Program-made: the position numbers and the translations under genes
Shown: piece by piece, positions 2,337 through 49,634 of the stretch
Layout: every line of letters begins with the position of its first letter
Numbering within the stretch: position 1 is the stretch's first letter
The notes under the pieces: model-generated
What the model was told of the DNA's origin: nothing
What the model saw: only the letters and a program-made list of their open reading frames with translations
Databases searched by the model: none
Virus record (IMG/VR): IMGVR_UViG_3300020048_006428
Location: 32,001 to 96,000 of that record
Direction: 5' to 3' (one strand)
Length of the DNA: 64,000 nucleotides
Source: a virus
Taxonomy: Duplodnaviria; Heunggongvirae; Uroviricota; Caudoviricetes

Positions 2337-2831
2337 ATGAAACACTTAAAACTATTTGAAAACTTCAATAATGAAAAAGATATTATAAAAATAGCAGATT
2401 TAATAAATGGTTTAGATTTGGATTTGGCTATAATTTTATGTGATTCACAAAATATTGATATAAGACAAGCTGTAAGATATTTAATAGAATCAATTAAGAT
2501 TAATGATGTTAATGTTGCTAAAGAATATAGAAATAAAGCAAAATCACTTGGGGAAAATTACGCAGAAGTATTATTCAAAAGAAGAATTTATGATATTGAT
2601 ATTGATGTTTATGTAACTAAGGATATTTCTTATGAGCAAGATGCGAATTATGATGAAGATACAGTAATATATTTTGTTCATTTTGAATATAATGGTGAAG
2701 ATATCAATGGTGAATATGAATTTTCAACTGATGATACTTATGATATTATTATAAATTATAATAAATTTATTGAAAAGTATATATATCCAGATTTTATGTA
2801 TTTTATAGAATACAAAAAAGAAGATTTATAA
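2337..2831 (+). CDS. Hypothetical protein with MKHLKLFENF leader; paralog of 3601
   Basis: First ~40 aa nearly identical to ORF 3601. Confidence 0.7.
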   Translation: MKHLKLFENFNNEKDIIKIADLINGLDLDLAIILCDSQNIDIRQAVRYLIESIKINDVNVAKEYRNKAKSLGENYAEVLFKRRIYDIDIDVYVTKDISYEQDANYDEDTVIYFVHFEYNGEDINGEYEFSTDDTYDIIINYNKFIEKYIYPDFMYFIEYKKEDL

Positions 2832-2836
2832 AATAT

Positions 2837-3604
2837 ATGAAATACTTAAAACTTTTTGAAAACTTTAGTATGTCACATATACGTGAAATATGTGAATATT
2901 ATGATATTACAGACTATTCAATAAATCCTGATGGTTCTATTGATGTAATTGGTAATGTTAATTTTTCAAATGGTAGACTAACTGAAATACCAATAAAATT
3001 TAATAAAGTAGATGGTAATTTTAATTTTTCAAATAATAGATTAACTACTTTGGAAGGTTGTCCAAAAGAAGTTAGTGGCTATTTTAACGTTTTTAAAAAT
3101 AGCTTAACTACTTTAGAAGGTTGTCCAAAATACATTGGAAGTCATTTTTCGTGTAATCATAATAATTTAACATCCTTAGAAAATGGACCAAAATTTGTTG
3201 GTGAAACTTTTAATTGTTCAAATAACAATATTAAAAGTTTAAAAGGATTTGAAACTATTTTAAATGGATCTTTTGTTATTTCTAATAATAACTTAGAAAG
3301 CCTTGTTGATTGTCCAAATATAAGAGGTTCTCTTCATATACAAGAAAATAAACTAACTACGTTAGAAGGACTTCCAGAAGTTCATAAAGGTATACTTTGT
3401 TTTGGAAATCCAATATATGAAATATTTTCTTTGTTTTATAATGATATTAAGATTTATTTAGATTATCAAGAAACATATAATTTTGTTAGAAAGGATTGTA
3501 GAGTAGTTAAATATTTATTAGAAGAAGTTATAAAAGATTATAATGAATATTATAATAAATCAGTAGAATTACCAAAAAAAATTATAGGATATACTTATAT
3601 ATGA
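2837..3604 (+). CDS. Leucine-rich repeat protein with MKYLKLFENF leader
   Basis: ~22-aa repeats GxFxxSxNxLTTLEGCPxxV; N-cap INPDGSIDV and C-cap YLDYQETYNF...GYTYI. Confidence 0.85.
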   Translation: MKYLKLFENFSMSHIREICEYYDITDYSINPDGSIDVIGNVNFSNGRLTEIPIKFNKVDGNFNFSNNRLTTLEGCPKEVSGYFNVFKNSLTTLEGCPKYIGSHFSCNHNNLTSLENGPKFVGETFNCSNNNIKSLKGFETILNGSFVISNNNLESLVDCPNIRGSLHIQENKLTTLEGLPEVHKGILCFGNPIYEIFSLFYNDIKIYLDYQETYNFVRKDCRVVKYLLEEVIKDYNEYYNKSVELPKKIIGYTYI

Positions 3605-4134
3605 AATACTTAAAACTTTTTGAAAACTTCAATCTAAATGAAGATATTATAAAAATAGCTAATCTAATAAATGGTTTAGATTTAGATTTGGCTATAATAC
3701 TAAGCGAAACGCAAAATATTAATATGGATTATGTCATAGACTATTTGATAAGTCTTGTTTTAATACCTGATAGTAAATATCAAGAATTTTGTGATTTTTT
3801 AGAAGAAATTACATATGCAGATGATGCAAAAACTTTATATGAAGCTAAAGTTTATAATTTAGATATAGAAATAACCGCAATTAGAGAATCATATGAAGAT
3901 GATTCATTGGACTTTGATGATGAAGATGATTCATTGGACTTTGATGCAGAAGACTTTTGTATTGAAATAAGAATTAGTTCACCCGAAATATATTATGAAA
4001 CTCTATTATATCCAAGAAATATTTCTACTGGTGTTAAAGATATAATATCTTTATTTAATGAAGTAGTAACTGATATTATTTCACAAACTATGAATGAAAT
4101 CATTGAAAAAAGAAAAGAATCCTTAGAATATTAA
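3601..4134 (+). CDS. Acidic hypothetical protein with MKYLKLFENF leader
   Basis: ATGA overlap with the upstream gene; N-terminus shared with 2337; internal EDDSLDFD duplication. Confidence 0.7.
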   Translation: MKYLKLFENFNLNEDIIKIANLINGLDLDLAIILSETQNINMDYVIDYLISLVLIPDSKYQEFCDFLEEITYADDAKTLYEAKVYNLDIEITAIRESYEDDSLDFDDEDDSLDFDAEDFCIEIRISSPEIYYETLLYPRNISTGVKDIISLFNEVVTDIISQTMNEIIEKRKESLEY

Positions 4135-4149
4135 TCTAAGGATTCTTTT
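4113..4149. terminator. Bidirectional intrinsic terminator
   Basis: AAAAGAATCCTTAGA-n7-TCTAAGGATTCTTTT between convergent genes. Confidence 0.75.
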
Positions 4150-5103
4150 TTATTTAGTTAAAAACCATTCAACACTATTAAGACATTCTAAATCTTTTCC
4201 GCCACCATATGAAATAGAACTCTGTAAACATTCTTCTAAATAAACCAATTCTTCTAAAATTGTTTTATCTTTTAATTCTATTAAATTTCTTTCACCTTCA
4301 ATCCTATTCTTTTTACCGGATTGAAATGCAGAAGCACTGCCCCAATATTCTTTGTATTTTTTACCATCAGAAGCATTTATTACACAACCAGGGGAATCTT
4401 TAAACCCAGATAACATACCACCAACCATAACCATTGAAGCACCTAAAACAATAGATTTTGAAATATCACCTGGTTCTCTTATTCCACCATCTGCTATTAT
4501 TGGCAATTTAGAAGCAATTGCACATTCATATATTGTTGCTGCTTGGCAATTTCTACTACCATATCCAGTTGCCGGATAAGTCGTACAAGAAAATCCTGGA
4601 GCCACACCAACTTTCAGGGCATCTGCTCCCCAATTTGTAAGGTCTTCAACTGCTTCAACTGTTGATATATTACCTGCTATTTTGAATGTATTTGGTAATT
4701 TATCATTTAGATAAGCCAACATCTTTTCCATTTTTATAGAATGTCCGTGAGCAATATCAATAGTTACATAGTCAAGATTAAGATTATTTAATAAAATATC
4801 ATCAATTAATTGATAAGAATCTTCATTTACTCCAATTGATATAGATGATATTAGATTAAGACTATTCATTTTTTTAATAAATTGTAGTTGATCTACATCA
4901 AATCTATGTAATATATAGAAATAACCATTTTTTGCTAATTCAATAGCTAATTCTTCGTTTATAACACATTCCATATTAGCAGGGATGACTGGGATATTAA
5001 ATATGTGTTTTCCAAATTTAGTAGATGTGTTGCATTCTGAACGAGATTCAACAATACATTTTTTTGGTTTTAGATTTATGGTATTAAAATCAAATTTTTT
5101 CAT
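4150..5103 (-). CDS. guaC: GMP reductase
   Basis: PVIPANM, TIDIAHGHS, KVGVAPGFSCTT, PIIADGGIR, LQSSISYGGG; 317 aa without CBS domains. Confidence 0.92.
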   Translation of the reverse strand: MKKFDFNTINLKPKKCIVESRSECNTSTKFGKHIFNIPVIPANMECVINEELAIELAKNGYFYILHRFDVDQLQFIKKMNSLNLISSISIGVNEDSYQLIDDILLNNLNLDYVTIDIAHGHSIKMEKMLAYLNDKLPNTFKIAGNISTVEAVEDLTNWGADALKVGVAPGFSCTTYPATGYGSRNCQAATIYECAIASKLPIIADGGIREPGDISKSIVLGASMVMVGGMLSGFKDSPGCVINASDGKKYKEYWGSASAFQSGKKNRIEGERNLIELKDKTILEELVYLEECLQSSISYGGGKDLECLNSVEWFLTK

Positions 5104-5106
5104 TTT

Positions 5107-5412
5107 TTAGTAGAATGAATATTTTTTATCACTATCAATAATACAATAATTGTTTATTGGATATAAATTAATAACTTCTGAATTTTCATCAACAACACAT
5201 CTCATAGAACCATCTATTAAGTCATTTTGAATTTTAACAGTCATATTATTCAATCCTTTAAATACTGTGAAAAGGGAATCATTTATATCTATTTTAAGAT
5301 ATGATTTCTTTCCAATTAATTTACCATTGTTGTTTTGTTCAAAATAAGATTGAAGAATTACATTTTCCAATTCTTCTGTTTGTTTAAAGTCAATTTTAAG
5401 TTCGTACTTCAT
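5107..5412 (-). CDS. Hypothetical protein
   Basis: ORF co-oriented with guaC, behind an AAAC-N17-TATAAC element. Confidence 0.6.
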   Translation of the reverse strand: MKYELKIDFKQTEELENVILQSYFEQNNNGKLIGKKSYLKIDINDSLFTVFKGLNNMTVKIQNDLIDGSMRCVVDENSEVINLYPINNYCIIDSDKKYSFY

Positions 5413-5486
5413 TTTTTAAAAAGTTTGTTTAATAATTAATTTACTAATGTTATATTTAAGATTTTTATAAAGTTTAATTTTTATGT

Positions 5487-5669
5487 TTATCTTAAAAAGA
5501 TAAACATAAAAACAATCCACAAAATTGGACCAACAATTCTACTATATAACAGTTTTATATTATTTAAATTATTAATATAAAAAATATTTAAATGTATATA
5601 AAACAACAACATCATAAAAACAATTGATAATGCAAAAGAAAAAGCGATTAAGATTAATATGTAAGTCAT
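5487..5669 (-). CDS. Small membrane protein
   Basis: Two hydrophobic stretches in 60 aa. Confidence 0.45.
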   Translation of the reverse strand: MTYILILIAFSFALSIVFMMLLFYIHLNIFYINNLNNIKLLYSRIVGPILWIVFMFIFLR

Positions 5670-5778
5670 ACTTATGTTTAAATTTAGTAAGTGAATAACT
5701 ATATAACTATATAGTTATTCAAAAAGTTCATTTTTTCATTTTTTTCATTTAATATATAAAGAAAAAAGAAAAATAAGT

Positions 5779-6726: not shown

Positions 6727-6741
6727 AAGAAAAATAACAAA

Positions 6742-6798
6742 TAACAACTAAAAGAAAAATAACCACTTTAAAAGTGGTTATTTTTCTTTTAGTTGTTA
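6742..6798. terminator. Long perfect inverted repeat / bidirectional terminator
   Basis: 28-bp arms TAACAACTAAAAGAAAAATAACCACTTT-A-reverse complement. Confidence 0.75.
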
Positions 6799-6813
6799 AA
6801 GTTTAAAAAAAAT

Positions 6814-7190: not shown

Positions 7191-7219
7191 ATTTATTATA
7201 TTTATAAATTTAATAAAGT

Positions 7220-10435: not shown

Positions 10436-13108
10436 ATGAAATATATAAAAAGTATAAGTGAGTTCAAATCATATAACGAATCAAATATAAGAAAAGTTCC
10501 ATATAGTAGGGAAATAAAAGTTTATGAAAATGCATTTGAAAATGATATTACTTGGGGTGGGTCTTTATTAGGTAGATTAATAAATTCCACAATTAGATAT
10601 AGCACAGCACAATATAAATCAACAAAAATAAAAGGAATAGTTGCTAAAGTTCAAACATGTTTGGATACATTAGTTGCTAATGTTGCGTTAGATGAAGATA
10701 GTAACAATTCTATTGATAAATTAAAAGTTAAAATGCTTTTAAAAGAAATATATGCTGTTGTTTCAAGTGATTCTGAATTGGATGAAAAATTAACAACATT
10801 ATTGGGTGATAAGACACAAGGGTCAGGTCTTATAGATACAACTATATCATACATAGAAAGTATTGATATTGATAAAAAAGATATATTGATAAAGAAGTTA
10901 GAAGATTTTAAGAAAGCCTTGATGGATATAGACTATAATATAAAAGATGATGATGAAGATGATGAAGATACCAATGATGTTGACCAATCTAATCCAGAAT
11001 TTAAGTTTTTCACTACAAATATAAATCTATTTAAATCAATAATAGGTCTTAATAATGTAATTAAAAATAGAAGAATAAAAATAGAAGGTGAACAAGATAT
11101 TGATAGTGGATATACAACTGCTGACACTTCTGTTGATGATTTTAATGCTTATAATAGAAACCAAAGAAATATTAATAAGAATAAAAAAGTTGATAATAAA
11201 CAGACAACTACAACTAAACCAATTACAACAACCCAAACAAAGAAGCCACCATTTAAGATAACATCAATTGGTAGTAAGGAAGAAGTGGAAGAAGTCAAAG
11301 CTAATGAAAATGTTGAAACCCTAAGAAGTAAAGAAAAACATGCAATAGCTGCTTGGAAAAAAATAATTAAGATATGTAAAGATATTAAAATTGATGATTT
11401 ATCAAAGAAATTAGAAGAAATTATAAATCAAAGTAAATCAGGTGAAAAATTAAATAAAACTGTAGTAATTGCTATTGGTAAGAATATAATATTAAATGAA
11501 GCAACAACTGGTAAACCAATCGGTTATCAAGAATTAATAAAAGAAGAAATGGGTAATATCCCTTCACAATATTCTGATTTACCAAAAAGAATTTCATTTT
11601 TATCTAAAATTTTATTATCATTCAAAGATGATATGGGTTTAATTGGATCACTTGGGGAAGCTATTCAACATATTAAAAATTATATAAAATCATATAACGA
11701 ATTAAAAAATATCTACCCTAAACTTTCTAATAAAAAGTTAGAAAAATTTAATGATTTTAATTTTAAGAAGAATTTAGAAAAATTTAATGATTTTAATTTT
11801 TTAAATGAAAAATTTGATATAAATGATGATTCAACCTATGATAAAGTTCAAGTGGCTTGGTTTAAATTTTTTAATAAAGGTGAAGAAAATTCTTGGAAAT
11901 TAACCAATGAAGATTCTGAATTGAGAGATAAAGTGGAAAATATAGGTGATAAAGAAATACCATTTGATTCCGAATCACATGTAGATAAAATAATGGAAAT
12001 AGTTAATCTATTTGGAAAAGCATATCGATTATATGCTAATAGTAGTATTCCATCTGGTAGACCTGGTGGTAGAGTATCACAAAAAACTTTTAGAGCATAT
12101 ATTTATATTGGAGAACTATCTAGTGGTAGAGGTGGTGATTGGGAAAATGGTGTTGCAAGTGGTGGACCATGGGCATATAAGATAACATTTGAAAAATGGG
12201 AAGATGGTATTACTAAAATATTAGAAGATCCAAAATATAGAAAAGTATTAGCAAACATCAAATTTAAAAATACTGGACCTAATCAAGATCAAGGTTCTGG
12301 TGTTACTGGTAAAGATGGTGGTTATGGTAGTGATGGTGGATCACCAAACAGAAAAATTGTATCCGGTAGATCATTATTTGACTTCATAAATGAAATGATA
12401 AATCCAGAAGGTGGTTTTGCTAAATCAAGACAAAAAATAATGAAAGAATATTTTGGTGGGGTTGATAAACTTACATCAGCAGAAGAAGAAGCAAGAAAAA
12501 AAGAAGAAAGAGAAAGTAAAGAAAATTTACAAGAACCAAAAACTAAAGAAGTTGGTGATAAAAAAGTAATATCATTTGTTAGTGCTGATCGAAATGGATT
12601 ATATAAAGTAGATAATATATCTAAACTAATTGGTAATTTTATTAAAATTAAATATAAAGATAATCATATTATAGCATATGTGATTGGGAAAAAAGAAATT
12701 AATAAAATTGAACATTTGTTAATTAAATTTAATTTTTCTAGTTCCGGTGAAAAACAAAATTTAATATCTAAATATCTATCTAATGATTTAAAAGACAAAT
12801 ATAAAATAACTGAAGAAAGTAAAATAATCGAGGAAAACACTCCATTATATTTTGGTGTTATTCCAGTTTCACAAAAAATATTAAAAAATAAAGATTTGAA
12901 ATTTAAATATGGTAAAGTAACCAATAATAATTTAATAAGTGAGATAAAACTGTTAGATATTAAAAAAATAGAAGAAATTACATTTTTAGCACATTGTCCA
13001 GACCAAGATAAAGTAATATGGAAATTAGTTGAAGTTAAAACCCCACAAAGTAGACTACAATATGACATATCAGATATAGATAAAATAGACTTAACAAAAT
13101 TAATATGA
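10436..13108 (+). CDS. Large hypothetical, probably virion-associated protein
   Basis: 890 aa, late promoter motif, leader-like N-terminus, just upstream of the tail sheath region. Confidence 0.65.
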   Translation: MKYIKSISEFKSYNESNIRKVPYSREIKVYENAFENDITWGGSLLGRLINSTIRYSTAQYKSTKIKGIVAKVQTCLDTLVANVALDEDSNNSIDKLKVKMLLKEIYAVVSSDSELDEKLTTLLGDKTQGSGLIDTTISYIESIDIDKKDILIKKLEDFKKALMDIDYNIKDDDEDDEDTNDVDQSNPEFKFFTTNINLFKSIIGLNNVIKNRRIKIEGEQDIDSGYTTADTSVDDFNAYNRNQRNINKNKKVDNKQTTTTKPITTTQTKKPPFKITSIGSKEEVEEVKANENVETLRSKEKHAIAAWKKIIKICKDIKIDDLSKKLEEIINQSKSGEKLNKTVVIAIGKNIILNEATTGKPIGYQELIKEEMGNIPSQYSDLPKRISFLSKILLSFKDDMGLIGSLGEAIQHIKNYIKSYNELKNIYPKLSNKKLEKFNDFNFKKNLEKFNDFNFLNEKFDINDDSTYDKVQVAWFKFFNKGEENSWKLTNEDSELRDKVENIGDKEIPFDSESHVDKIMEIVNLFGKAYRLYANSSIPSGRPGGRVSQKTFRAYIYIGELSSGRGGDWENGVASGGPWAYKITFEKWEDGITKILEDPKYRKVLANIKFKNTGPNQDQGSGVTGKDGGYGSDGGSPNRKIVSGRSLFDFINEMINPEGGFAKSRQKIMKEYFGGVDKLTSAEEEARKKEERESKENLQEPKTKEVGDKKVISFVSADRNGLYKVDNISKLIGNFIKIKYKDNHIIAYVIGKKEINKIEHLLIKFNFSSSGEKQNLISKYLSNDLKDKYKITEESKIIEENTPLYFGVIPVSQKILKNKDLKFKYGKVTNNNLISEIKLLDIKKIEEITFLAHCPDQDKVIWKLVEVKTPQSRLQYDISDIDKIDLTKLI

Positions 13109-13722
13109 AAATTAAAAAATATTTAGATTTTATTGCAGAAAAGTTTCAGGCGGATCAATCCGATCCACCTGAAATGGCATCTGATATGAACACATATAAT
13201 AGTTTAGAAAAATCAATTTCAGATTTCAATCAAAAAAAAGTTGAATTAAGTAATATTTATATGACTTATAAAGATGAAGCTGATTTAATTAACAAATTAT
13301 CAGCTCGTGGGCATATTGAAAAGAAAACAAATAATAAAAAACAAATTAAATTTAATAATCCTGTTTTAGCCTTATGGTCACAATCTTGTGAATTAAGAAG
13401 AAAGATTAAAGATTTAGAAGATGGTATTAAGAATGAAGAAGAAGGTATTAAAAGTGAACAAACTAATATTACAAACAATCAAGGAAATCAAACTATCCAA
13501 GATTCATCAACTTCTAAAATAGACCAATCTAAAGCTAATGTATTAAATAAAAAAAATGAAGTTACTAAATTAAGAAAAGAAATAATGGATATTGAAAAAA
13601 AGGTTAATGATAAGCTAAAACAAATGAAAAATGATTTAAATATATCTAAAAAAAGAATAGACTATTATAAAATTAATAAAAGGTCAGCTTCAACCACACA
13701 AACTGATATAACAAATCAATAA
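13105..13722 (+). CDS. Coiled-coil protein with MKIKKYLDFIAE leader
   Basis: Heptad-rich; N-terminus close to the T4 CTS MKTYQEFIAE. Confidence 0.65.
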   Translation: MKIKKYLDFIAEKFQADQSDPPEMASDMNTYNSLEKSISDFNQKKVELSNIYMTYKDEADLINKLSARGHIEKKTNNKKQIKFNNPVLALWSQSCELRRKIKDLEDGIKNEEEGIKSEQTNITNNQGNQTIQDSSTSKIDQSKANVLNKKNEVTKLRKEIMDIEKKVNDKLKQMKNDLNISKKRIDYYKINKRSASTTQTDITNQ

Positions 13723-19492: not shown

Positions 19493-19906
19493 ATGAAAAT
19501 TAGAAAAGTATTTGAAGACACAAATGATTATGAACTTTGTGAAGAAATAAGTTATGAGACATACGAATCTCATATCTGGGTGGGTGAATATGGAGATAAA
19601 CTAATAAGCCTAAAGAATAATATAATTCCAATAATTAAAGAGCAAGAAAAGGAAATATTTGATTATTATTATGGTGTTGGTGGAATGCAACATAATAGTA
19701 GAAGCAAAACTGATTTTTATTCTTTTCATGGATATGAAGTTGATGGATTACATATAATAGTAGAAGCAATTGAAGATTATTATTTCTTAGTTACTATAAA
19801 TACAGAAGAATTTGAAATGTATTTCAAATGTGATGGTGTTGATGGTTTAAAAATGTTATCTAAGAAATTCATAGAAAAATATAAAGATATAAACAATGAA
19901 GATTAA
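19493..19906 (+). CDS. Hypothetical protein, tandem paralog 1 (MKIRKVFED)
   Basis: Start moved to ATG 19493 behind TAATATATA; shares CxEISYExY, EDYxx and YFxCxxxGLK motifs with the next two ORFs. Confidence 0.7.
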   Translation: MKIRKVFEDTNDYELCEEISYETYESHIWVGEYGDKLISLKNNIIPIIKEQEKEIFDYYYGVGGMQHNSRSKTDFYSFHGYEVDGLHIIVEAIEDYYFLVTINTEEFEMYFKCDGVDGLKMLSKKFIEKYKDINNED

Positions 19907-20258
19907 AAAAGTTTTTGAAAACATAGATGATGATATTTGTAGAGAAATATCATATGAAGAATATGCAGGGTATTTTGAAAGAGATAAAGTTAAATTATCA
20001 AATAATGATATAGAAACAATAAAATTAGAAAGAAACAAAATATTAGATCTTCTTTTTGAAAATAAAAAGGAAACATATTATTTATTTAGTTGTACAGTAT
20101 ACCATAGTTGTGAAGATTTTTTTCAATTTGAAGTTAATGCTTTAGAAGATTATTTATATTTAGTAAAAATAGAATTGCGTGAAAGATTGTTTACTTATTT
20201 TTTATGTGAAAGAGAAGGTTTAAAAGATATAGCAAGTAGATTTGAATCAAAAGTTTAA
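19896..20258 (+). CDS. Hypothetical protein, tandem paralog 2
   Basis: First ~70 nt identical to ORF 20273. Confidence 0.7.
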   Translation: MKIKKVFENIDDDICREISYEEYAGYFERDKVKLSNNDIETIKLERNKILDLLFENKKETYYLFSCTVYHSCEDFFQFEVNALEDYLYLVKIELRERLFTYFLCEREGLKDIASRFESKV

Positions 20259-20272: not shown

Positions 20273-20653
20273 ATGAAGATTAAAAAAGTTTTTGAAAACA
20301 TAGATGATGATATTTGTAGAGAAATATCATATGAAGAATATGGAGAGTATTGTGAAAATGCTGAAGATAACGAAGAGTATGGGAAATTATCAAGTAGCGA
20401 TATTGAAGTTATAAAACAACAAAGGGATAAAATTTTAAATCGTTATGAAGAAACTACAAATTATTCTTATCAAATTTTATGTGATGTCACAGAAAGAAAG
20501 ATTGATAGTTTTTTTCAATTTGAAGTTTATGCTTTAGAAGATTATTTATATGTGACCCTTATGTCATTAGAAAACACCTATAAATATTATTTATGTGAAA
20601 GAGAAGGATTAAAAAATATAGCAGATAAATTTTTAAAGGAATATGAAAATTAA
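20273..20653 (+). CDS. Hypothetical protein, tandem paralog 3
   Basis: Shared FFQFEVxALEDYLY and LCEREGLK. Confidence 0.7.
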   Translation: MKIKKVFENIDDDICREISYEEYGEYCENAEDNEEYGKLSSSDIEVIKQQRDKILNRYEETTNYSYQILCDVTERKIDSFFQFEVYALEDYLYVTLMSLENTYKYYLCEREGLKNIADKFLKEYEN

Positions 20654-20671: not shown

Positions 20672-21100
20672 ATGAAAAATATACAAACATTTGAAGGTTT
20701 TTTTACAAATATTAAAAATATTTTTAGAAATCCAAAAACAAAATATACATCAGAGCTAAATAAATATAGCTTAAAATTATCTTATAAAGATAAACATAGT
20801 TTTGATATAAAACATAGTGGTAGATTAGTTGGTGAAATATTACTATCTGATGAAGAATCATCATATCCTATATGGATATTAAATGTTTATTATTATGATA
20901 GTGAAATAAAAAATGTAGACAAAAAACCATCTACAAAAATTGTAGATCAAGATGAACCATATTATGCTAAAAGTTCTAAGAAATATAGAGTTGATTCAGA
21001 TGATGCTTTGAAATCGTTTATTAATTGGTGGTCAAGTAATACTAAATCAGGTAGATTAAAAAATCCTTTATATAAGGCTAAATCAGGAACTAACTTATAA
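20672..21100 (+). CDS. Hypothetical protein with MKNIQTFEGF leader
   Basis: Leader motif; followed by bidirectional hairpin near 21104-21135. Confidence 0.65.
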   Translation: MKNIQTFEGFFTNIKNIFRNPKTKYTSELNKYSLKLSYKDKHSFDIKHSGRLVGEILLSDEESSYPIWILNVYYYDSEIKNVDKKPSTKIVDQDEPYYAKSSKKYRVDSDDALKSFINWWSSNTKSGRLKNPLYKAKSGTNL

Positions 21101-23264: not shown

Positions 23265-24059
23265 ATGTTATTAAAAATTGGTAGTAATGGTGAAGATGTT
23301 AAAAAGCTTCAAGAAAAACTTGGATTAATAGCTGATGGTGATTTTGGTGCAAATACTGAAACTGCTGTTAAAACTTGGCAGAAGAACAATGGTCTATCTG
23401 CTGATGGTGTTGTTGGTGACATAACTTGGAAGAAGATGTTTTCTGTTGTATTGGTAGAAGAGTTAAACCTATCAAGACTTAAAGGAATTATACCTGATAA
23501 AGTTATAAATGAAATACCTGAAACTGCTAAAAGATTTAATATAACAAATAATCTTAGATTATCACATTTTTTGGCACAATGTTCAGTAGAAAGTGGTAAT
23601 TTTGTTGCCGTTTTAGAAAATCTAAATTATTCATCTGATGGACTTAAAAGGGTATTTCCAAGATATTTCCCTGATAATTTAAGTGAATCATATGCAAGAC
23701 AACCAGAAAAAATAGCTAATAGAGTTTATGGTTCAAGACTTGGAAATGGTGATGAATTAAGTGGCGAAGGTTATAAATATAGGGGTAGAGGTTATCTACA
23801 ACTTACAGGAAAATCAAATTATGAAGCATTTTCTAAATTTATTGGCGAAGATTGTGTTGCTAATCCAGATTTGGTAGCAACTAAATATCCGTTAGCATCT
23901 GTTGGATTTTTCTTTAATACTTATAAAGCTTGGGATATATGTGACTTAGGATCAGATGTAAATACAGTAACACTTGTATCAAAAAGAGTTAATGGTGGAA
24001 CAAATGGATTAGAAGAAAGAATTAAAAAATTTGCATATTTTTATAATATACTAAAATAA
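23265..24059 (+). CDS. Endolysin: peptidoglycan-binding domain plus GH19 glycoside hydrolase
   Basis: LKIGSNGEDVKKLQ...ADGVVGDITW; HFLAQCSVESG, ENLNYS, YRGRGYLQLTGKSNY, VNGGTNGLEER. Confidence 0.92.
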   Translation: MLLKIGSNGEDVKKLQEKLGLIADGDFGANTETAVKTWQKNNGLSADGVVGDITWKKMFSVVLVEELNLSRLKGIIPDKVINEIPETAKRFNITNNLRLSHFLAQCSVESGNFVAVLENLNYSSDGLKRVFPRYFPDNLSESYARQPEKIANRVYGSRLGNGDELSGEGYKYRGRGYLQLTGKSNYEAFSKFIGEDCVANPDLVATKYPLASVGFFFNTYKAWDICDLGSDVNTVTLVSKRVNGGTNGLEERIKKFAYFYNILK

Positions 24060-29400: not shown

Positions 29401-31110
29401 CTATACTTTATTAAGTTTATATCTATAGTAAATAAATATTGATAACATTTCTTTATTGTTTGCTAATGATGTTTCAACTATATTTAATAATTCTTCTACT
29501 GACCAAGTCATAATTCCAAACCAATCAAGTAATTCTAAATAACCTACATCTCCTATTAAACTAACAATAAAATTCTTATATGGTGTGATGTCAAATCTAT
29601 TCCTACAATTTCTTAGGTTTAAATAAACATTTACCATTGCTATATTTTTAATACCTACTGTTTTTTGAACTATGTAACCATTATAAATATTTTCAATTCT
29701 TGAAAGAACATTATTAGAAAATCTATATTTCAAAAGATATTCTGCTAATTTTTCAAGTCCATCAATATCCATAGATTGTTCAAATTGTTTTACATTTTCC
29801 TTTGTTTTCAAAATCCATTTGTCTAAATATACATTAAAAAATAATTGTGATTTATGACATAAATATTCTGTTCCATTTATATTAATATTTATTAATAATT
29901 TTATTTCATCTTTATGTGTGTAATCACTATTAAATTCATTATCAATCTTGTCATATAATTCAAATTCTATTGCTTCATCTGCTGGTAAAGAACAACTATG
30001 TATATCTGAATGAACTGATTTATTATAAAGTATATATGTATCCAAATAATCAGAATAAACTATTTGATATGATGTTGAAAGATAGTATTCACCTTCGGAT
30101 TCAACAAAAACTGCTTCACCATCAGGCACCCAAGATTGAACATCAACACAATAAACTGCATCATTTGAATCTACTTTTAGATCAAATTCATTTGAGTAAA
30201 CTTGACCTGAGCTTGATAGCCCATTTGTCTGTCTTAATCTATTTTGTCTATTTTCTTCATTTGTTATTTCATATGTTTTTGGATAATATGCTTCAAAAGT
30301 GTCCATATATGGAAACATTTTATAATCATATTTTTTTAATACAACTTTCATATATTCCCTATTATCAGAATCATAAATTTTCATATTATTTTCTTTTGCA
30401 TATTCCAAAAATAAATTTGCATCAGAATCATAATTACAATATATCCTATCCATATAATACTCACCTGTTGATAATTTCCAAATCAATGCTCTTCCAACAA
30501 TCTTATTTGGATTATCTCTTTTTAAGATTAAAAGACTACAAACTTCTGGATTTTTTGTATAAATGTCAAAAAACATTTGACATTTTTTATATCGCATACA
30601 AGAATTACTTAAATCACCTGTTTTTTCTTGGTAATTATCTACCAAATACCATTTTTTAATTTCATCACCCTTAACCAATTCAAATGATGATGAACTATAT
30701 ATTTTATTAAATGTAGATTTATATAAATTTACAAAAATAGGCAATTCCTTACTTGGAAAATCTGTTAATACTTTATTTACAAATCTACCTATTGCAATTT
30801 CAGATCTTTGTTTTTTCCATAAAGTATGATTTGAATCACTCGTAACAACTTCTAAATTCTTATCTATATCTTCTTCCCCTAATGTATTTACAATCCTATT
30901 TACTTGTATAAAAGATACTGAATTATCCTTATCTGTTATATCAATTAATGTAAAGTCTTTTTTATTATCCACATCATTTTCTATATCCAATAACTTATTA
31001 GTTATTGGATTATCAATCATTTTGAATAATTCTTTTAATTTAGTGGAATAAATTAATGGTAATGTTTTTATACTTTCTAAAAACAACTCGTAATTTTTAA
31101 TATTTTTCAT
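29401..31110 (-). CDS. Conserved phage protein, paralog of 24604
   Basis: NSCM, FDIYTKNPEVC, GRALIWKLS, MDRIY, FPYMDTF; leader MKNIKNYELFLES. Confidence 0.7.
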   Translation of the reverse strand: MKNIKNYELFLESIKTLPLIYSTKLKELFKMIDNPITNKLLDIENDVDNKKDFTLIDITDKDNSVSFIQVNRIVNTLGEEDIDKNLEVVTSDSNHTLWKKQRSEIAIGRFVNKVLTDFPSKELPIFVNLYKSTFNKIYSSSSFELVKGDEIKKWYLVDNYQEKTGDLSNSCMRYKKCQMFFDIYTKNPEVCSLLILKRDNPNKIVGRALIWKLSTGEYYMDRIYCNYDSDANLFLEYAKENNMKIYDSDNREYMKVVLKKYDYKMFPYMDTFEAYYPKTYEITNEENRQNRLRQTNGLSSSGQVYSNEFDLKVDSNDAVYCVDVQSWVPDGEAVFVESEGEYYLSTSYQIVYSDYLDTYILYNKSVHSDIHSCSLPADEAIEFELYDKIDNEFNSDYTHKDEIKLLINININGTEYLCHKSQLFFNVYLDKWILKTKENVKQFEQSMDIDGLEKLAEYLLKYRFSNNVLSRIENIYNGYIVQKTVGIKNIAMVNVYLNLRNCRNRFDITPYKNFIVSLIGDVGYLELLDWFGIMTWSVEELLNIVETSLANNKEMLSIFIYYRYKLNKV

Positions 31111-35613: not shown

Positions 35614-35874
35614 TTAATATTCATCATATTCATCATATTCATCATCTGGAAATTTATCTTTAATAAATTGTGGGGTGTTTTCAACAAATTCTACATTTAC
35701 ACCAAAATGGTTTAATATTATATTAAAATATTCTTCTCTATAATCACCATCATTTTCGTGTATAGATGTAATTATGTTATTATCTTGATCATAAAAAACT
35801 TGACCGTTATTCCAATAGGTATAGAATAATGTTTTACCTATTGACATTTCATTTATTGACATTAAGTGTTTCAT
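35614..35874 (-). CDS. Small acidic protein with MKHLMSINEM leader
   Basis: Leader variant; palindromic promoter upstream. Confidence 0.6.
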   Translation of the reverse strand: MKHLMSINEMSIGKTLFYTYWNNGQVFYDQDNNIITSIHENDGDYREEYFNIILNHFGVNVEFVENTPQFIKDKFPDDEYDEYDEY

Positions 35875-35922: not shown

Positions 35923-36708
35923 ATGAAACACTTAAAAACATTTGAATCTTTTAACTATTCACCTTATAGGTTGATTAATGAAAATGGTGAATATATTAAG
36001 CAGATTAAGGAATTGATTCTAAGTTTTGATGAAGATAATATTAAATTAGCATTTCAGATTGCGAAAGGATTAAAGATTAAACAAATAGATATTTTGGAAG
36101 AATACAGAGATTTGTTTACTGCTTTTGGATATAAACCATCAGTAACCAGTTTATTAAAAATAATTGGAACATATAATTTGGATTGTAAATCAGCTACTGT
36201 TCCTGATATTTTATTTAAGTTACCAAATTTAGAAAAAATAACATTTTATAAAATTGTTAATTTGGATAATTTAGTTGAGTTTGATGGTGATATCAATATT
36301 TGGACAACTTATGGTGGTGGTGGACAGGGAACTATAACAAGTTTACCATCATTGAAAAAAATAGGGGGTTCATTAGATATATTATTTAGTTTAATTAATT
36401 CAATACCACAATTAGAATATGTTGGTGGTAGTTTGAACTTAATGGGGAAAACAATTAAATCATTTAGTAAACTAACAGCAGTTGGTGGAAATTTGTATAT
36501 GAGTAATGCTAAAATTGAGTCATTGGGTAGTTTAACTACTGTTGGTGGAAATTTGAGTTTAAGTCACGCTAAAATTGATTCATTGGGTAGTTTAACTACT
36601 GTTGGTGGAGATTTGAGTTTAAGAAATACACCATTATCAGAAACAGCAGAAGAGGAAATAAGAAATAAAGTTGATGTAAAAGGTAAGATTTTCCTATATG
36701 GATACTAG
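35923..36708 (+). CDS. LRR-type protein (LxxVGGxLxL repeats) with MKHLKTFESF leader
   Basis: About five 22-aa repeats such as SLGSLTTVGGNLSLSHAKI. Confidence 0.8.
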   Translation: MKHLKTFESFNYSPYRLINENGEYIKQIKELILSFDEDNIKLAFQIAKGLKIKQIDILEEYRDLFTAFGYKPSVTSLLKIIGTYNLDCKSATVPDILFKLPNLEKITFYKIVNLDNLVEFDGDINIWTTYGGGGQGTITSLPSLKKIGGSLDILFSLINSIPQLEYVGGSLNLMGKTIKSFSKLTAVGGNLYMSNAKIESLGSLTTVGGNLSLSHAKIDSLGSLTTVGGDLSLRNTPLSETAEEEIRNKVDVKGKIFLYGY

Positions 36709-36772: not shown

Positions 36773-37075
36773 ATGAAACATTTAAAAACATTTGAAGCTT
36801 TTGATGATAATTTTAGAAAGGATTCAGCAAGACCTTATTCAAGAGAAGAATATAGTGGAAAAGTAGATACATCTAAATTTATGATGAACAGAAAAAGGGA
36901 TTCAAGAGAATTGGGTTTAGATCCAGAAGACGAATTTGATGATAATTATACAGAAGATGAAATTGACATCGAAGATGATTTATATCCAACTGAATTAGAA
37001 GATGACGAAGATTTTGGTGATGATGATGATTACGAAGATTACGAAAACTTCGGTTATGGTGATGATGAATTCTAA
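36773..37075 (+). CDS. Very acidic small protein with MKHLKTFEAF leader
   Basis: D/E/Y/F-rich C-terminal half. Confidence 0.65.
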   Translation: MKHLKTFEAFDDNFRKDSARPYSREEYSGKVDTSKFMMNRKRDSRELGLDPEDEFDDNYTEDEIDIEDDLYPTELEDDEDFGDDDDYEDYENFGYGDDEF

Positions 37076-37711: not shown

Positions 37712-37993
37712 TTATGCTAATTCCATAGTAACTGTTAGTCCAGCTGATTTTAGAATATCATATAGTTTTTTGATAGTTTCTTGATTACCTCTTTTAACAT
37801 CACATTTTCCTGTATAATGAACTAAAAAAGCACATTGGGTAGCTTGTTCATATTCGTGTTTTACATATTTTATAAGACACTCTATTACGAAATCAAATGT
37901 TGATACATCATCATTGTGTAATATTAATATATATGGTTTTGATAAAATTTCTTCTAATTTACTATCGGTTTGTTCTCTTGTAATTGTTGCCAT
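37712..37993 (-). CDS. clpS: Clp protease adaptor ClpS (Bacteroidota-type)
   Basis: LILHNDDVSTFDFVI, EQATQCAFLVHYTGKCDVK. Confidence 0.9.
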   Translation of the reverse strand: MATITREQTDSKLEEILSKPYILILHNDDVSTFDFVIECLIKYVKHEYEQATQCAFLVHYTGKCDVKRGNQETIKKLYDILKSAGLTVTMELA

Positions 37994-40180: not shown

Positions 40181-40810
40181 ATGAAATATATAAAATTATT
40201 TGAAAACTTTGAAAAGACTAACCCCAATGATAATATTTTAATAATTGTGGATATACAGAAGAGTTTTAAGAAATTCTTTACTGAAATTTACCTCCACAAG
40301 GTAAAGGAATATTGTAATCAATTTAAACAAGTATATCAAATTTGGGATAATCATATTGATGGTAAAAATGTAGATAAGGATTATTTATATGATGAAGATC
40401 CAACAATACCTGTTCATAGTGATTTATATGATTTTCCAAATCAAAAAGATATAATAGAAAAACGTTATAACTATAATGTTAATGTTGATTTCTATAAAAA
40501 GATTTTAGATAGTAAAACATATAAATTAATAAAATCCAAAGAAGAAAATAAGCAATTAAAAAGAGGTGACTTCTTTTATACAAAAGAAGACACTATTATT
40601 GTTTATATTGGTAATAATCATATTTGGCATCATCTTCCAAAGAAATTATATGAATTATTTAAAGATTTAAAAGGTAAAGAAGTTGTTATGATTGGTGGTG
40701 CAGATCATGAATGTTTTCTTGATATTGAAGTTGCTGCTAAATCATTAGGTGTTAAAGTTAAGAGGGATTTTAGGTTTATTTATTCTGCAACTAATTGTCC
40801 TATTAAATAA
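40181..40810 (+). CDS. Isochorismatase/cysteine-hydrolase-like protein with MKYIKLFENF leader
   Basis: LIIVDIQ, EKRY and MIGGADHECF give a D-K-C triad pattern. Confidence 0.65.
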   Translation: MKYIKLFENFEKTNPNDNILIIVDIQKSFKKFFTEIYLHKVKEYCNQFKQVYQIWDNHIDGKNVDKDYLYDEDPTIPVHSDLYDFPNQKDIIEKRYNYNVNVDFYKKILDSKTYKLIKSKEENKQLKRGDFFYTKEDTIIVYIGNNHIWHHLPKKLYELFKDLKGKEVVMIGGADHECFLDIEVAAKSLGVKVKRDFRFIYSATNCPIK

Positions 40811-41235: not shown

Positions 41236-41778
41236 ATGAAATATTTAAAAACTTTTAATGAATCTAAAACAGATACTTGGTTAGATAATTATACACCAGA
41301 ACAACTTGCTAAATCTATTGATCAATACTTTAATCAATTTGATGAATATAATGATAATTTAGAATCTTTATTAAAATCATATAATGATGATGATGATGAA
41401 TATGATAATCCATATGAATTTATACTTACAAGTGTTAAGAATATATTGAAAGATAGTAATTATATAGAAAATTTTCTTGATTGTATGGCATCTGTTTATG
41501 AAATTGTTCCTGATCCAAATGATGAAGTTACGGATATGGATGATATAGAAGAACATTTCCTTGATTATGAATTTAATATCACAAGATTGAAAGATGATGG
41601 TTTTAGTATATTATTATCTAATGTTAAAGTAGATGAAGTTCATAAAATATTGAAATATATATGGTATAGTGTTTTCCAAAGACTAAGAAAACATAAAATA
41701 AAAGAAGTAACTGCTATAAATTTTGATAGATATGCCACTATTAAGATAATTTTAGAACTTAAAAAAATGGTAGAATAA
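41236..41778 (+). CDS. Acidic hypothetical protein with MKYLKTFNES leader
   Basis: Leader; palindromic promoter shared with the gp25-like gene. Confidence 0.65.
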   Translation: MKYLKTFNESKTDTWLDNYTPEQLAKSIDQYFNQFDEYNDNLESLLKSYNDDDDEYDNPYEFILTSVKNILKDSNYIENFLDCMASVYEIVPDPNDEVTDMDDIEEHFLDYEFNITRLKDDGFSILLSNVKVDEVHKILKYIWYSVFQRLRKHKIKEVTAINFDRYATIKIILELKKMVE

Positions 41779-45888: not shown

Positions 45889-45971
45889 AAAATATAGAAA
45901 ATCCAAAATCATTTGATTTTGGATTTTTTTTCTTTAATATATAAGTATATAAAAAATAGAAGGATATATTT

Positions 45972-46619
45972 ATGAAATACTTAAAATTATTTGAAAACTT
46001 TAATCAATCAGAAATTGATGATATTTGTGAAAAATACAACATTAAAAACTATACCATAAATCCAGATGGATCTATTGATGTAGATGGTAATGTTGAGTTA
46101 TCTTATAGAAATTTAACTAAATTACCAATTAAATTCAATAAAATAACTGGTCATTTTAATTTATTTAGTAATAATTTAAACAACTTAGAAGGTTGTCCAA
46201 ATTATGTTGGTGGTGAGTTTGATTGTAGATATAATAAATTAACTAATTTAATAGAAAGTCCTAATTATGTTGGTGGTAAATTTAATTGTTCTTTTAATCA
46301 ATTAACCAATTTAGAAGGTTGTCCTAACCATATTGGTGAATGTTTTAATTTTTCTTCTAATCAATTGACTAGTTTAGATGGGTGTCTTAATGTTGGCAAT
46401 TATTTTAATTATTATTATACAACAAATCCAATATCACCAATAGTAGATTTATTTAATAGTATTAAGATATATTTAGATTATCAAGAAACATATAATTTTC
46501 TAAGATCTGATTCTAAAATTGTTAAACATCTTTTAGAAGAAGCTATAAAAGATTATAATGAATATTATAATAAAAAAGTAGAATTACCGGAAGAAATAAA
46601 AGAATATACTTACATATGA
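45972..46619 (+). CDS. LRR protein, paralog of 2837
   Basis: Same leader, caps and LEGCPNYVGG repeats. Confidence 0.85.
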   Translation: MKYLKLFENFNQSEIDDICEKYNIKNYTINPDGSIDVDGNVELSYRNLTKLPIKFNKITGHFNLFSNNLNNLEGCPNYVGGEFDCRYNKLTNLIESPNYVGGKFNCSFNQLTNLEGCPNHIGECFNFSSNQLTSLDGCLNVGNYFNYYYTTNPISPIVDLFNSIKIYLDYQETYNFLRSDSKIVKHLLEEAIKDYNEYYNKKVELPEEIKEYTYI

Positions 46620-47167
46620 AATACTTAAAATTATTTGAAAATTTTGATCAATCAGAAATTGATAAAATTTGTAAAAAATATAACATAAAAAACTATACCA
46701 TAAATCCAGATGGTTCTATTGATGTTGATGGTCATGTTTGGTTGGTTAATAAGGATTTAACCAAACTACCACTTAAATTTAATAGAATTTCTATGGCTTT
46801 TAATTGTTCTGGTAATAGACTAACCAGTTTAGAAGGTGTGCCTAAAGAAGTTGGTGGGTTATTTGATTGTTCTGATAATAATTTAACCAGTTTAGAAGGT
46901 TGTCCTAACTATGTTGGTGGTAGTTTTGATTATTCTTATAACCCAATATCTATAATAATAGATTTATTTAATATCGATGGTGATTATTATTCAGTTAATA
47001 ATTATTTAGATTACCAAGAAACATATAATTTTTTAAGAAAAGATGGTAAAATTGTTAAACACTTATTGGAAGAGGCATTAAAAGATTTTAATGAATATTA
47101 TCATAAAAATGTAAAATTTCCAAATGAAATAGAAGAAATAGAATCATTTGGATATACTTATATTTAA
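46616..47167 (+). CDS. LRR protein, shortest paralog
   Basis: Same leader and caps with fewer repeats; ATGA coupling. Confidence 0.85.
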   Translation: MKYLKLFENFDQSEIDKICKKYNIKNYTINPDGSIDVDGHVWLVNKDLTKLPLKFNRISMAFNCSGNRLTSLEGVPKEVGGLFDCSDNNLTSLEGCPNYVGGSFDYSYNPISIIIDLFNIDGDYYSVNNYLDYQETYNFLRKDGKIVKHLLEEALKDFNEYYHKNVKFPNEIEEIESFGYTYI

Positions 47168-47267
47168 AAAATAAACAATTTGTATAATAAATGTATAATA
47201 TCTGAAAGCATTTTCAGATATTTCTGATTTTGGAAAGACATACGTCTTAGAAAAAAAATATGCTTAT

Positions 47268-47633
47268 ATGTATTTACACAATAAAGATTTATTTATAGAA
47301 ATAATTGTCAGTAAGGCAAAAGGTAAACTTACTAATCCTGCAAAATTAATGTTGGAAATTCTTGCTAAAAGAACTATTAAAAAAATGAGATATTATAATG
47401 ATGATGATAGAAAAGATTGCTATCAATCAGGATTATTAGATATGTTTTCTAATTGGCACAATTTTAATGAAGAAAAATCTGATAACGCTTTTGCTTATTT
47501 TACAGAAATTTTCAAACGTGGATTAGCAAAAGGTTTTAACGAGATTTACAAGAAAAAAGGTGATGCGGATCATCAAATAAGATTAATATCCATTGAAAGT
47601 TCAAATGATGGAATGGGTTTACATTCAATTTAA
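47268..47633 (+). CDS. Late-transcription sigma factor, T4 gp55-like
   Basis: YLHNKDL, DCYQSGLL, NFNEEKSDNAFAYFTEI. Confidence 0.8.
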   Translation: MYLHNKDLFIEIIVSKAKGKLTNPAKLMLEILAKRTIKKMRYYNDDDRKDCYQSGLLDMFSNWHNFNEEKSDNAFAYFTEIFKRGLAKGFNEIYKKKGDADHQIRLISIESSNDGMGLHSI

Positions 47634-47666
47634 TTATATAAAAATATTTTATAACTTTTTTAAATC

Positions 47667-49175
47667 ATGATTAAGGAACAATTTATAGAAATAAAGGGAC
47701 ATAGAACCAATTTTGATTATTTTGTAAAGTTAGGTTATCCTATACAATATAAAAGACCAATATTGGTTAAAGTTGTTGATTTAATGTCGGGTTCTACTTG
47801 TGCTATTACATCAGTGTGTGATAATTGTAATAAAGAAAAGAAAACTGCATTTAGGGATTATTATGAATATACTTATGGATTAAAAGAAAAATATTATTGT
47901 AATAAATGTAATAATATTAAAAGAAAAGAAACTTGTATTGAAAAATATGGAGTTGATAATCCGATGCAAGTTGATGATATTAAAAATAAATTAAAGGATT
48001 CTTTACTCGATAAGTATGGTGTTAATCATTATTCAAAGACTGATGAATATAAAGAAAAATATAAAGAAACTTGTATTGAAAAATATGGGGTTGACAATGC
48101 TTCTAAATATCAAGATGTAAAAGAACTTATTTCTGATATTAAATTAAAATATCACAATAGTTTGGATAAATATAAAGAACTTATTTCTGATGAATATGAT
48201 ATTATTGAATATAATAAGGATAGAAATTTTACTATAAGTCATAAAAGATGTTCTTCAAATTTTGATATATTTATTGTTACATTATCAGATAGAATAAAAA
48301 ACAAAAACATAATTTGTACTAATTGTAATCCAATTGATAATTTTAATTCAAGTTCTGAAATAGAATTAAAATTATTTTTAAAAGATTGTGGGGTAGATTT
48401 CATTGAAAATTCTTATAAAATTATTCCGCCATTATCATTGGATATATTTATACCAGATCTTAACTTAGCTATTGAATTTAATGGTGTATATTGGCATTCT
48501 GAAATTTACAAAGATAAAAAGTATCATTATAATAAAACGATAAGTTGTAATAAATTAGGAATTGAATTAATACATATATGGGAAGATGATTGGAACAATA
48601 AACAAGAAATTGTTAAATCAATCTTACTGAATAAGATTAAAAAGTCAAAAAGTATTTATGCAAGAAATTGTATATTAAAAGAAGTTGAAGATGTAAAACT
48701 TATTAAGAATTTCTTGGATAAAAATCATATACAAGGATATGTAAATTCATCAATAAAAATTGGTTTATTTTATAAAGATGAATTGGTTAGTTTGATGTGT
48801 TTTGGAAAGAAAAAGAAAAATATGGAATTAGTTAGATTCTGTAATATATTAGGATTTAATATAGTAGGTGCTGCTTCTAAATTATTTAAATACTTTATTA
48901 AGAATTATAATTTCAATTATATAGAATCGTTTAGTGATAATGCGATGTTTAATGGTAATTTATATACCAATTTAGGATTTAAATTTGTCTATAATACACC
49001 AATAAATTATTGGTGGGTTGTTGGAAGCATTAGAAAACACAGATTCAATTTTAATAAAAAAACATTAGTTAAAAATGGTTTTGATGAAAATAAGAGCGAA
49101 AGTGAAATAATGAATGAACGTGGATATTATAGAATATGGGGGTGTGGATTAAAAAAATGGGTATACTTAAAATAA
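47667..49175 (+). CDS. Hef-like putative homing endonuclease
   Basis: Zn ribbon, KYGVDN repeats, LDIFIPDLNLAIEFNGVYWHS, WEDDW, ELVRFCN, RIWGCG. Confidence 0.75.
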   Translation: MIKEQFIEIKGHRTNFDYFVKLGYPIQYKRPILVKVVDLMSGSTCAITSVCDNCNKEKKTAFRDYYEYTYGLKEKYYCNKCNNIKRKETCIEKYGVDNPMQVDDIKNKLKDSLLDKYGVNHYSKTDEYKEKYKETCIEKYGVDNASKYQDVKELISDIKLKYHNSLDKYKELISDEYDIIEYNKDRNFTISHKRCSSNFDIFIVTLSDRIKNKNIICTNCNPIDNFNSSSEIELKLFLKDCGVDFIENSYKIIPPLSLDIFIPDLNLAIEFNGVYWHSEIYKDKKYHYNKTISCNKLGIELIHIWEDDWNNKQEIVKSILLNKIKKSKSIYARNCILKEVEDVKLIKNFLDKNHIQGYVNSSIKIGLFYKDELVSLMCFGKKKKNMELVRFCNILGFNIVGAASKLFKYFIKNYNFNYIESFSDNAMFNGNLYTNLGFKFVYNTPINYWWVVGSIRKHRFNFNKKTLVKNGFDENKSESEIMNERGYYRIWGCGLKKWVYLK

Positions 49176-49325
49176 GTATATATTTTTCTAAATTACCTAG
49201 CTACATAGATACATATTTAAATAGGTTAAAGGAAATGGCAAAGGATATTGATATTAAAGGTGATATTACAATTGAAAAAATATAATTTCTTTTTAATATA
49301 TACATAAAAATAAATAATTAATTAT

Positions 49326-49634
49326 ATGAAAAACGTAAGAAGATTTAATGAAGAATGGTCAGATGGTTATGATGATGACCAAAAAAGATATGTTCCAGAT
49401 GGGGTTTGGGATTTAGAAGACATTTTAGTATTTGAAGATGAAGATGAAATTTCAGAATATCCCGATTATGCTATTGCTGCACCATATGATACAGATGCAA
49501 GAATATATTTATCAAGAAAACCAACAAAAAGTGTAAATTTTACAGATTTTGCATTGAGTTTTGAAGGACATGGAACTTGTGCTATGATAGAAAACTGTCC
49601 TAAAAGAATTTTAATTTTGGGTGGAAATGATTAA
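49326..49634 (+). CDS. Acidic hypothetical protein with MKNVRRFNEE leader
   Basis: Leader variant; late promoter motif. Confidence 0.6.
   Translation: MKNVRRFNEEWSDGYDDDQKRYVPDGVWDLEDILVFEDEDEISEYPDYAIAAPYDTDARIYLSRKPTKSVNFTDFALSFEGHGTCAMIENCPKRILILGGND

Follow-up and report, generated by a model that had tools for sequence, protein, structure and literature searches.

A 64,000-nucleotide stretch of viral DNA (hereafter the window; IMG/VR record IMGVR_UViG_3300020048_006428, bases 32001-96000 of a single contig of 276,400 bases and 25% G+C) contains many genes whose products are largely unrelated in sequence and begin with a similar short N-terminal leader, referred to below as the tag. We consider it likely that this leader acts as a capsid targeting propeptide of the T4 type, employed on a large scale, which would recruit dozens of proteins or more to the prohead core and be trimmed there by a gp21-type protease. 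The principle of a capsid targeting sequence (CTS) is already known from phage T4; what is notable here is the scale of CTS-like tagging. A literature search, whose coverage stopped short of subscription papers, found no paper describing such a tag at this scale.

Genes for the neck, sheath, terminase, head closure, portal and capsid lie in the window, as does one in which a gp21-type protease is joined to a scaffold-like region. The major capsid protein shares 64% identity with its counterparts in the uncultured phages LR745206 (635 kb) and LR756502 (642 kb), and genomes of these sizes have been assigned to the Mahaphage clade, with predicted Bacteroidetes hosts (Al-Shayeb et al., PMC7162821). 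Based on the capsid match and this placement, the window probably derives from a Mahaphage-type huge phage of the T4 superfamily, of whose genome the contig probably represents less than half. LR745206, which is complete, was used as the main comparison genome.

The tag is 8-20 residues long and follows the pattern Met-Lys-x-hydrophobic-Lys/Arg-x-aromatic-x-x-aromatic ... hydrophobic-x-Glu. It can be described as two blocks, (His/Tyr)-(Leu/Ile)-(Lys/Arg)-x-aromatic and then hydrophobic-(Asn/Phe)-Glu-(Ser/Ala/Asn/Gly), with a spacing that differs by whole codons. The initial annotation had listed 23 such leaders in the window, and the start codon and leader sequence of every one were confirmed. 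The open reading frames (ORFs) concerned, with lengths in amino acids (aa), include several that encode leucine-rich repeat (LRR)-like proteins:

2337..2831, plus strand: tagged ORF, 164 aa, paralogue of 3601
2837..3604, plus strand: tagged LRR-like repeat protein, 255 aa, whose stop overlaps the start of 3601
3601..4134, plus strand: tagged ORF, 177 aa
8123..8986, minus strand: tagged ORF, 287 aa, with its own promoter motif
10436..13108, plus strand: tagged ORF, 890 aa; the LR745206 orthologue begins tag-like
13105..13722, plus strand: tagged ORF, 205 aa, long-form tag Tyr-x-x-Phe-Ile-x-Glu, directly 5' of the tail sheath gene
19493..19906, plus strand: tagged ORF, 137 aa, first of three paralogues
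19896..20258, plus strand: tagged ORF, 120 aa, paralogue of 19493
20273..20653, plus strand: tagged ORF, 126 aa, paralogue of 19493
20672..21100, plus strand: tagged ORF, 142 aa
24071..24595, plus strand: tagged ORF, 174 aa
24604..26112, plus strand: tagged ORF, 502 aa, long-form tag, weak Cys-rich Zn-finger match near the C-terminus, member of a 7-member family
29401..31110, minus strand: tagged ORF, 569 aa, in the family of 24604
35614..35874, minus strand: tagged ORF, 86 aa, weak variant ending Ile-Asn-Glu
35923..36708, plus strand: tagged ORF, 261 aa, C-terminus with repeats
36773..37075, plus strand: tagged, very acidic ORF, 100 aa
37085..37678, plus strand: tagged LRR-like paralogue, 197 aa
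39547..40122, plus strand: tagged Gln/Gly-rich ORF, 191 aa, 894 homologues
40181..40810, plus strand: tagged isochorismatase-fold (cysteine hydrolase-like) ORF, 209 aa; tagged LR745206 orthologue 64% identical
41236..41778, plus strand: tagged acidic ORF, 180 aa
45972..46619, plus strand: tagged LRR-like paralogue, 215 aa
46616..47167, plus strand: tagged LRR-like paralogue, 183 aa
49326..49634, plus strand: tagged acidic ORF, 102 aa

The tag occurs far above chance in both the contig and its relative. A strict leader pattern matched 19 ORF N-termini of the contig and none of 72,085 internal residues, and a two-block profile trained only on LR745206 scored at least 3 at 62 of 341 ORF starts of the contig, compared with 1.7 expected. 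When N-termini were clustered without regard to labels, 66 genes with 46 body families were grouped in the contig and 189 of 904 ORFs in LR745206, and the null core was empty in each case. The profile scan that the initial annotation had proposed as a check was thus positive in the contig, and the tagged set extends far beyond the 23 genes of the window: in the working set, which includes 9 genes added and 3 removed by eye, 76 of the 336 contig ORFs are tagged, and these represent 54 unrelated body families. The complete LR745206 genome has about 170-190 tagged genes. The claim that the bodies are diverse held for the 23 window genes as a group (16 families) but not for the eight strict leaders among them; since four of these belong to LRR paralogues and 2337 and 3601 are also paralogues, the eight head only four bodies.

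The T4 CTS is found on IPI, IPII, IPIII and Alt and is removed by gp21 (Mullaney and Black 1996, via PMC9026906, PMC5694885); its residues 4 and 7 are required for targeting and residues 8 and 10 for cutting (PMC9026906). In the T4 sequence, these four positions are Tyr, Phe, Ile and Glu in both IPII and IPIII. An aromatic pair spaced i/i+3 is present at 58 of 76 tagged and 34 of 260 untagged starts of the contig (and in 17 of the 23 window genes and 96 of 170 in LR745206), and a hydrophobic-x-Glu site lies within 25 residues of the start in 71 of 76 tagged versus 105 of 260 untagged genes, enrichments that are partly circular because the profile itself was built on these blocks. Short Phe-Asn-Glu variants of the tag lack the second aromatic residue, and in two of the window's 23 tagged proteins, those encoded at 20672 and 36773, residues 1-25 contain no hydrophobic-x-Glu site. 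Judged by sequence, the tag shows every feature that defines a T4-type CTS: it is a short N-terminal leader on unrelated bodies with a Met-Lys start, aromatics three apart and a hydrophobic-x-Glu end, in a phage that also has a cognate gp21 protease and T4-type head genes. Unlike T4, which has about four tagged genes, this system comprises 76 in the contig and 170-190 in the complete relative; it also differs in its acidic cargo, its variable block spacing and the fusion of its protease to a repeat-bearing scaffold, and it is known here from genes alone. The bodies are not homologous to the T4 internal proteins: among 75 tagged proteins, no PHROG or Pfam match to IPI, IPII or IPIII was found, and the bodies are acidic.

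A second point of comparison is provided by the phiKZ-type giant phages (SPN3US, phiKZ, 201phi2-1), whose ejection or inner-body proteins have propeptides that are removed by a protease (PMC5694885, PMC9026906). That system resembles the present one in its many different head proteins, in cleavage after Glu and in a large protein cargo delivered with the DNA; it differs in that it belongs to another lineage, involves about 50 head proteins and uses propeptides that are mostly long (>100 residues in several) and share no single short motif. A long propeptide with several cut sites was not found in the tagged proteins, in which the site enrichment is over by about residue 25. A secretion or membrane signal was rejected as the function of the leader, as a hydrophobic segment occurs in just 2 of the 76 tagged proteins.

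Tagged genes are concentrated in putative transcription units that begin with the motif A-T-A-T-A-T-A, as found before the structural genes (72 of 76 tagged versus 94 of 260 untagged genes, p 1e-21; in LR745206, 139 of 170 versus 190 of 690). Because of the structural genes that it precedes, we infer that this motif is a late promoter. The earlier statement that most of the 23 genes lie behind the motif or in an operon that does is accurate for 13 genes directly downstream of it and 9 later in such an operon; 2337 is in neither position. The distance from motif to start codon is bimodal, about 4-7 and 16-29 nucleotides (nt), in both the contig and LR745206, which suggests leaderless and leadered late transcripts. 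Core structural genes lack the tag, as had been claimed: the genes for portal, terminase, protease, major capsid protein, neck, sheath and head closure all encode untagged N-termini, none of the shell or tail proteins that could be recognised in the contig is tagged, and no tagged protein matches a structural PHROG family.

Several head-assembly parts in the window have motifs that match the tag:

56884..59040, plus strand: prohead protease of gp21 type (Pfam S77/S80) with a scaffold-like region fused to it; the putative processing enzyme
57379..57390, plus strand: predicted protease self-cleavage site Ile-Asn-Glu-Ser, residues 166-169
57772..58224, plus strand: eleven 14-residue scaffold repeats, each with Tyr-x-x-Tyr-(Leu/Ile)-Ala-Glu; a twelfth match is at residue 258
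59166..59192, plus strand: major capsid protein N-arm, residues 12-20, matching the long-form tag pattern
59256..59267, plus strand: predicted major capsid propeptide cut site Ile-Asn-Glu-Asn, residues 42-45

The protease has intact His, Ser and Asp motifs that align with those of Atu_ph07 gp204 and RaK2 gp092, and the protease-scaffold fusion has 3,915 homologues at E 1e-50 or better. The sequence (Ile/Leu/Val)-Asn-Glu-Ser directly follows the protease domain in 119 of 120 homologues, and Asn-Glu-Asn at the capsid cut site is conserved in three huge phages; both predicted sites have the same form as the second block of the tag. The scaffold repeat has the pattern of the T4 CTS, of the long-form tags and of the end of the T4 gp23 propeptide, and outside the tags the long-form pattern occurs only in the capsid N-arm (about 240,000 residues, two genomes). 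These matches point to a tag that mimics a motif of core assembly, or that is simply a preferred substrate of the protease, and they offer a testable answer to the old question of what a capsid targeting sequence binds.

Virion proteomes of cultured phages bear indirectly on the same reading. In the Agrobacterium jumbo phage Atu_ph07, for which 138 of 140 entries of the published virion table (PMC6102473, Table S5) could be mapped to ORFs by mass and order, label-blind N-terminal clustering gave one cluster of 25 proteins, 22 of which are virion proteins (p 6e-14). The enrichment persisted when paralogues were collapsed (11 of 14 in the virion, p 3e-6) and when only genes outside the structural gene clusters were counted (9 of 10, p 3e-8), and none of 15 shell, neck, tail or fibre proteins has the cluster leader. 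The leader genes are gp43-gp63 plus scattered genes. As in the window's phage, the Atu_ph07 leader is a short Met-Lys/Arg-aromatic sequence that ends in hydrophobic-x-Glu, stands before about 11 unrelated body families and is absent from tail and shell proteins; it differs in its shorter Trp/Leu consensus, its number of genes (about 25) and its cargo, none of which is common to the two. The word 'N-terminal' is absent from the text of the Atu_ph07 paper, which does not mention the leader (PMC6102473), so the leader of at least 22 published virion proteins has apparently gone undescribed so far. In the Campylobacter phage IBB_35, both strict T4-type matches, called before the virion list was read, are virion proteins; as the two starts are near-identical, they count as one independent case, and the Mahaphage profile does not transfer to this phage. 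A loose DNA pattern applied to five cultured phages lacked specificity. The general claim can be tested now in cultured Atu_ph07, and Vibrio phage VB_VaC_SRILMA is another cultured test system; at 3522-4818 of the stretch examined from that phage, three consecutive hypothetical genes with T4-CTS-like leaders adjoin an untagged LRR homologue.

Several observations weigh against a capsid targeting function. The Atu_ph07 cluster was missed by two earlier blind settings and was found only with 7- and 8-residue windows; a 9-residue window returned a different, non-virion cluster, and a blind two-block expectation-maximization search settled on noise. The tag of Atu_ph07, of the Met-Arg-Trp-x-Gln-Leu-x-Glu type, differs from that of the contig and is shorter; it scores poorly on the Mahaphage profile, and no tagged contig protein has a homologue in Atu_ph07; therefore this phage supports the reading by analogy. 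Its virions were purified with polyethylene glycol, so that proteins inside and outside the particle are indistinguishable. RaK2 has the same protease, but label-blind clustering found no tag family and no enrichment there, which indicates that the system is patchy, and N-terminal clusters without a Glu site in Atu_ph07 and RaK2 are not virion proteins. The resemblance had already been noticed when the scaffold and capsid-arm patterns were drawn up, and these matches are therefore leads. To our knowledge, 170-190 kinds of cargo in one head would be without precedent. Finally, the tagged bodies are acidic (median net charge -0.045 versus -0.005), unlike the basic T4 IPII and IPIII (+0.055). Taking these points into account, a portable T4-CTS-like packaging tag, as the initial annotation had proposed, is still the best reading, given protein-level conservation, the link to late promoters, the matching protease and the proteomes of two cultured T4-superfamily phages; packaging and cleavage themselves are inferred.

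The apparent excess of cargo for one head could instead mean that the tag is a signal used outside the virion, for instance a switch activated by a protease, a tag for degradation or chaperones, or an address that directs proteins to an assembly site within the cell. The window has a gene that by sequence appearance encodes a ClpS-like adaptor (37712-37993, minus strand, behind the late motif), DnaJ-like genes are present, and tagged RNA ligase and tRNA nucleotidyltransferase could work in the cytoplasm late in infection. We regard this explanation as quite improbable, since it is virion proteins that bear the analogous tags in Atu_ph07 and IBB_35, head-assembly parts are the one place in the genome where matching motifs occur, and the T4 protease acts within the prohead (PMC5694885).

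If the leader is a packaging signal, it should be conserved as a peptide rather than as DNA. In LR745206, the tags use synonymous codons roughly at genome frequency. Among the best 120 of the 894 homologues of 39547, positions 7 and 10 stay aromatic (with one His at position 10) as position 6 varies, and a second Ile-x-Glu site at residues 20-22 is invariant. From the free use of synonymous codons and the aromatic positions held in these orthologues, we conclude that the tag is selected as protein. In the contig, the strict tags have a near-identical 30-nt start in front of unrelated bodies and share rare codons, with TAC used for 18 of 26 Tyr residues compared with 9% genome-wide. This start pattern was found on 16 body families in 24 viral stretches and was absent among the 185,579 prokaryote genomes searched. 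These findings, and the insertion of LRR genes at start codons with a 4-nt overlap, are what would be expected if the leader were a nucleotide-level cassette, either an A/T-rich translation enhancer or a recombination hot spot by the late promoter, with the peptide as a by-product. Such an origin is very unlikely to explain the leader as a whole: besides the codon usage in LR745206, substitutions are conservative at the protein level, block spacing varies by whole codons, and the most needed late genes (capsid, sheath, portal) are untagged. Conservation of the nucleotide sequence only, which the initial annotation had named as a refuting outcome, was thus not found in old orthologues, and recent DNA-level copying of the 30-nt start cassette explains part of the tag's spread. 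The same 30-nt start was also seen at position 12443 of a 676-kb viral contig, on a small protein with a Tyr-His-Gly-Thr motif, which we take to be typical of ADP-ribosyltransferase-like enzymes.

The LRR-like family illustrates this copying. It has 15 members in the contig (window 2837-3604, 37085-37678 and 45972-47167, plus 11 more paralogues), of which 13 are tagged and 2 untagged, and its LR745206 orthologue is untagged. At three sites checked, the orthologues that flank the inserted LRR gene adjoin in LR745206 without it, and the LRR pair 45972/46616 is absent from the syntenic place in that genome. The 3' end of the LRR genes mimics the promoter-start junction, and a tagged gene comes next for 9 of the 11 tagged members with a same-strand downstream neighbour. 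The family therefore behaves as a mobile cassette, as partly shown by synteny, and the presence of tagged and untagged paralogues, the untagged LR745206 orthologue and the absence from syntenic sites demonstrate that the tag is portable in nature. In the contigs compared at the LRR pair, no clean empty-site joint was found, and the joints lie among paralogues. A single-sequence structure model of the LRR protein was of low confidence (mean pLDDT 54). T4-like phages are known for promoter-proximal cassette shuffling at ip loci and PeSL modules. Both there and here, variable genes are exchanged at short repeated elements located at gene starts; what differs is that the exchange point in this lineage is a coding tag plus a late promoter, used about 13 times by one LRR family.

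Whether the cargo is delivered is a separate matter from whether it is packaged. Pfam and PHROG searches gave no family for most window bodies, and most tagged bodies in general have no known family. The recognisable ones in the contig are ferritin-like, GNAT, ankyrin and isochorismatase-fold proteins; the cysteine hydrolase reported at 40181 stands at the fold level only (isochorismatase, template modelling scores 0.57/0.64), and a weak Cys-rich Zn-finger match was recovered in 24604. Tagged bodies in LR745206 include NUDIX, SMODS-associated NUDIX, tRNA nucleotidyltransferase, RNA ligase, cyclase, 2H phosphoesterase, phosphatase, exonuclease and methyltransferase families. Such enzyme types are known from counter-defence (cf. 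PMC7824862), and recognisable enzyme families make up a small minority of the 218 proteins scanned. LR745206 has, at 516201 and 571551, one tagged and one untagged gene that both encode a tRNA nucleotidyltransferase-type motif, a pairing to be expected if one of the copies is packaged.

These bodies could be core fillers or surface or decoration parts that the tag recruits to the prohead and that are mostly never delivered, comparable with T4 gp67/gp68 or external plugs. The bodies are acidic, and many are small and of low complexity, as is T4 gp67 (net -0.34); about 20 tagged genes are conserved, syntenic orthologues in LR745206; the tag matches the scaffold repeat; and the Atu_ph07 proteomics does not localise the proteins. 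Hydrophobic-x-Glu sites are enriched only at residues 5-15 and not in the bodies, which therefore do not appear to be built to be shredded, and a role as degradable scaffold was rejected on these grounds. In addition, those bodies that could be recognised are GNAT, ferritin and ankyrin proteins and enzymes of nucleotide and tRNA metabolism, and about half of the tagged genes have no match in LR745206 (37 of 76 have one). We therefore consider a filler or decoration role unlikely. The claim that the tagged proteins are effectors delivered at infection is nevertheless weaker than the claim of packaging, because most bodies have no known family and are acidic where T4 internal proteins are basic, and some may be core fillers; delivery of most of the cargo as effectors has, in our estimate, somewhat less than an even chance.

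If the leader is a capsid targeting propeptide, the pathway might run as follows. The A-T-A-T-A-T-A promoter motif, with which tagged genes are associated, would drive their transcription together with that of the head and tail genes. The leader would then join the prohead core, plausibly by imitating the 14-residue scaffold repeat and the capsid N-arm, and the gp21-type protease would cut after Glu and free intact bodies inside the head. At least part of the cargo may exit with the DNA and act before phage gene expression, the least supported of these steps. Copying of about 30 nt at the promoter-start junction would bring in new cargo, which is how the LRR family appears, in part from synteny, to have spread in this lineage. 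In its most far-reaching and distinctly tentative form, the proposal is that Mahaphage-type phages load 100-200 proteins, per head or across virions, by means of a scaffold-mimicking tag and inject a swappable arsenal before expression of their genes, consisting of nucleotide-signal hydrolases, tRNA repair enzymes, acetyltransferases and repeat-protein binders. In that case, the tag would allow injected counter-defence proteins of uncultured phages to be recognised directly from sequence. If the capsid targeting reading is correct, ten residues would assign a location (the head) and a timing (the start of infection) to about one in five genes of the largest known phages, almost all of these genes being unannotated. 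These genes would form a shortlist for the discovery of anti-defence proteins, and their number would suggest that huge genomes are partly spent on pre-packed cargo.

Two further features of the window were noted. In 2337, 3601, 24071 and 35923, a short helical segment behind the tag looks common to otherwise different bodies and is possibly a second module. The gene at 23265-24059, which encodes a peptidoglycan-binding and glycoside hydrolase 19 protein (a probable endolysin), is the first in the operon of the tagged genes 24071 and 24604.

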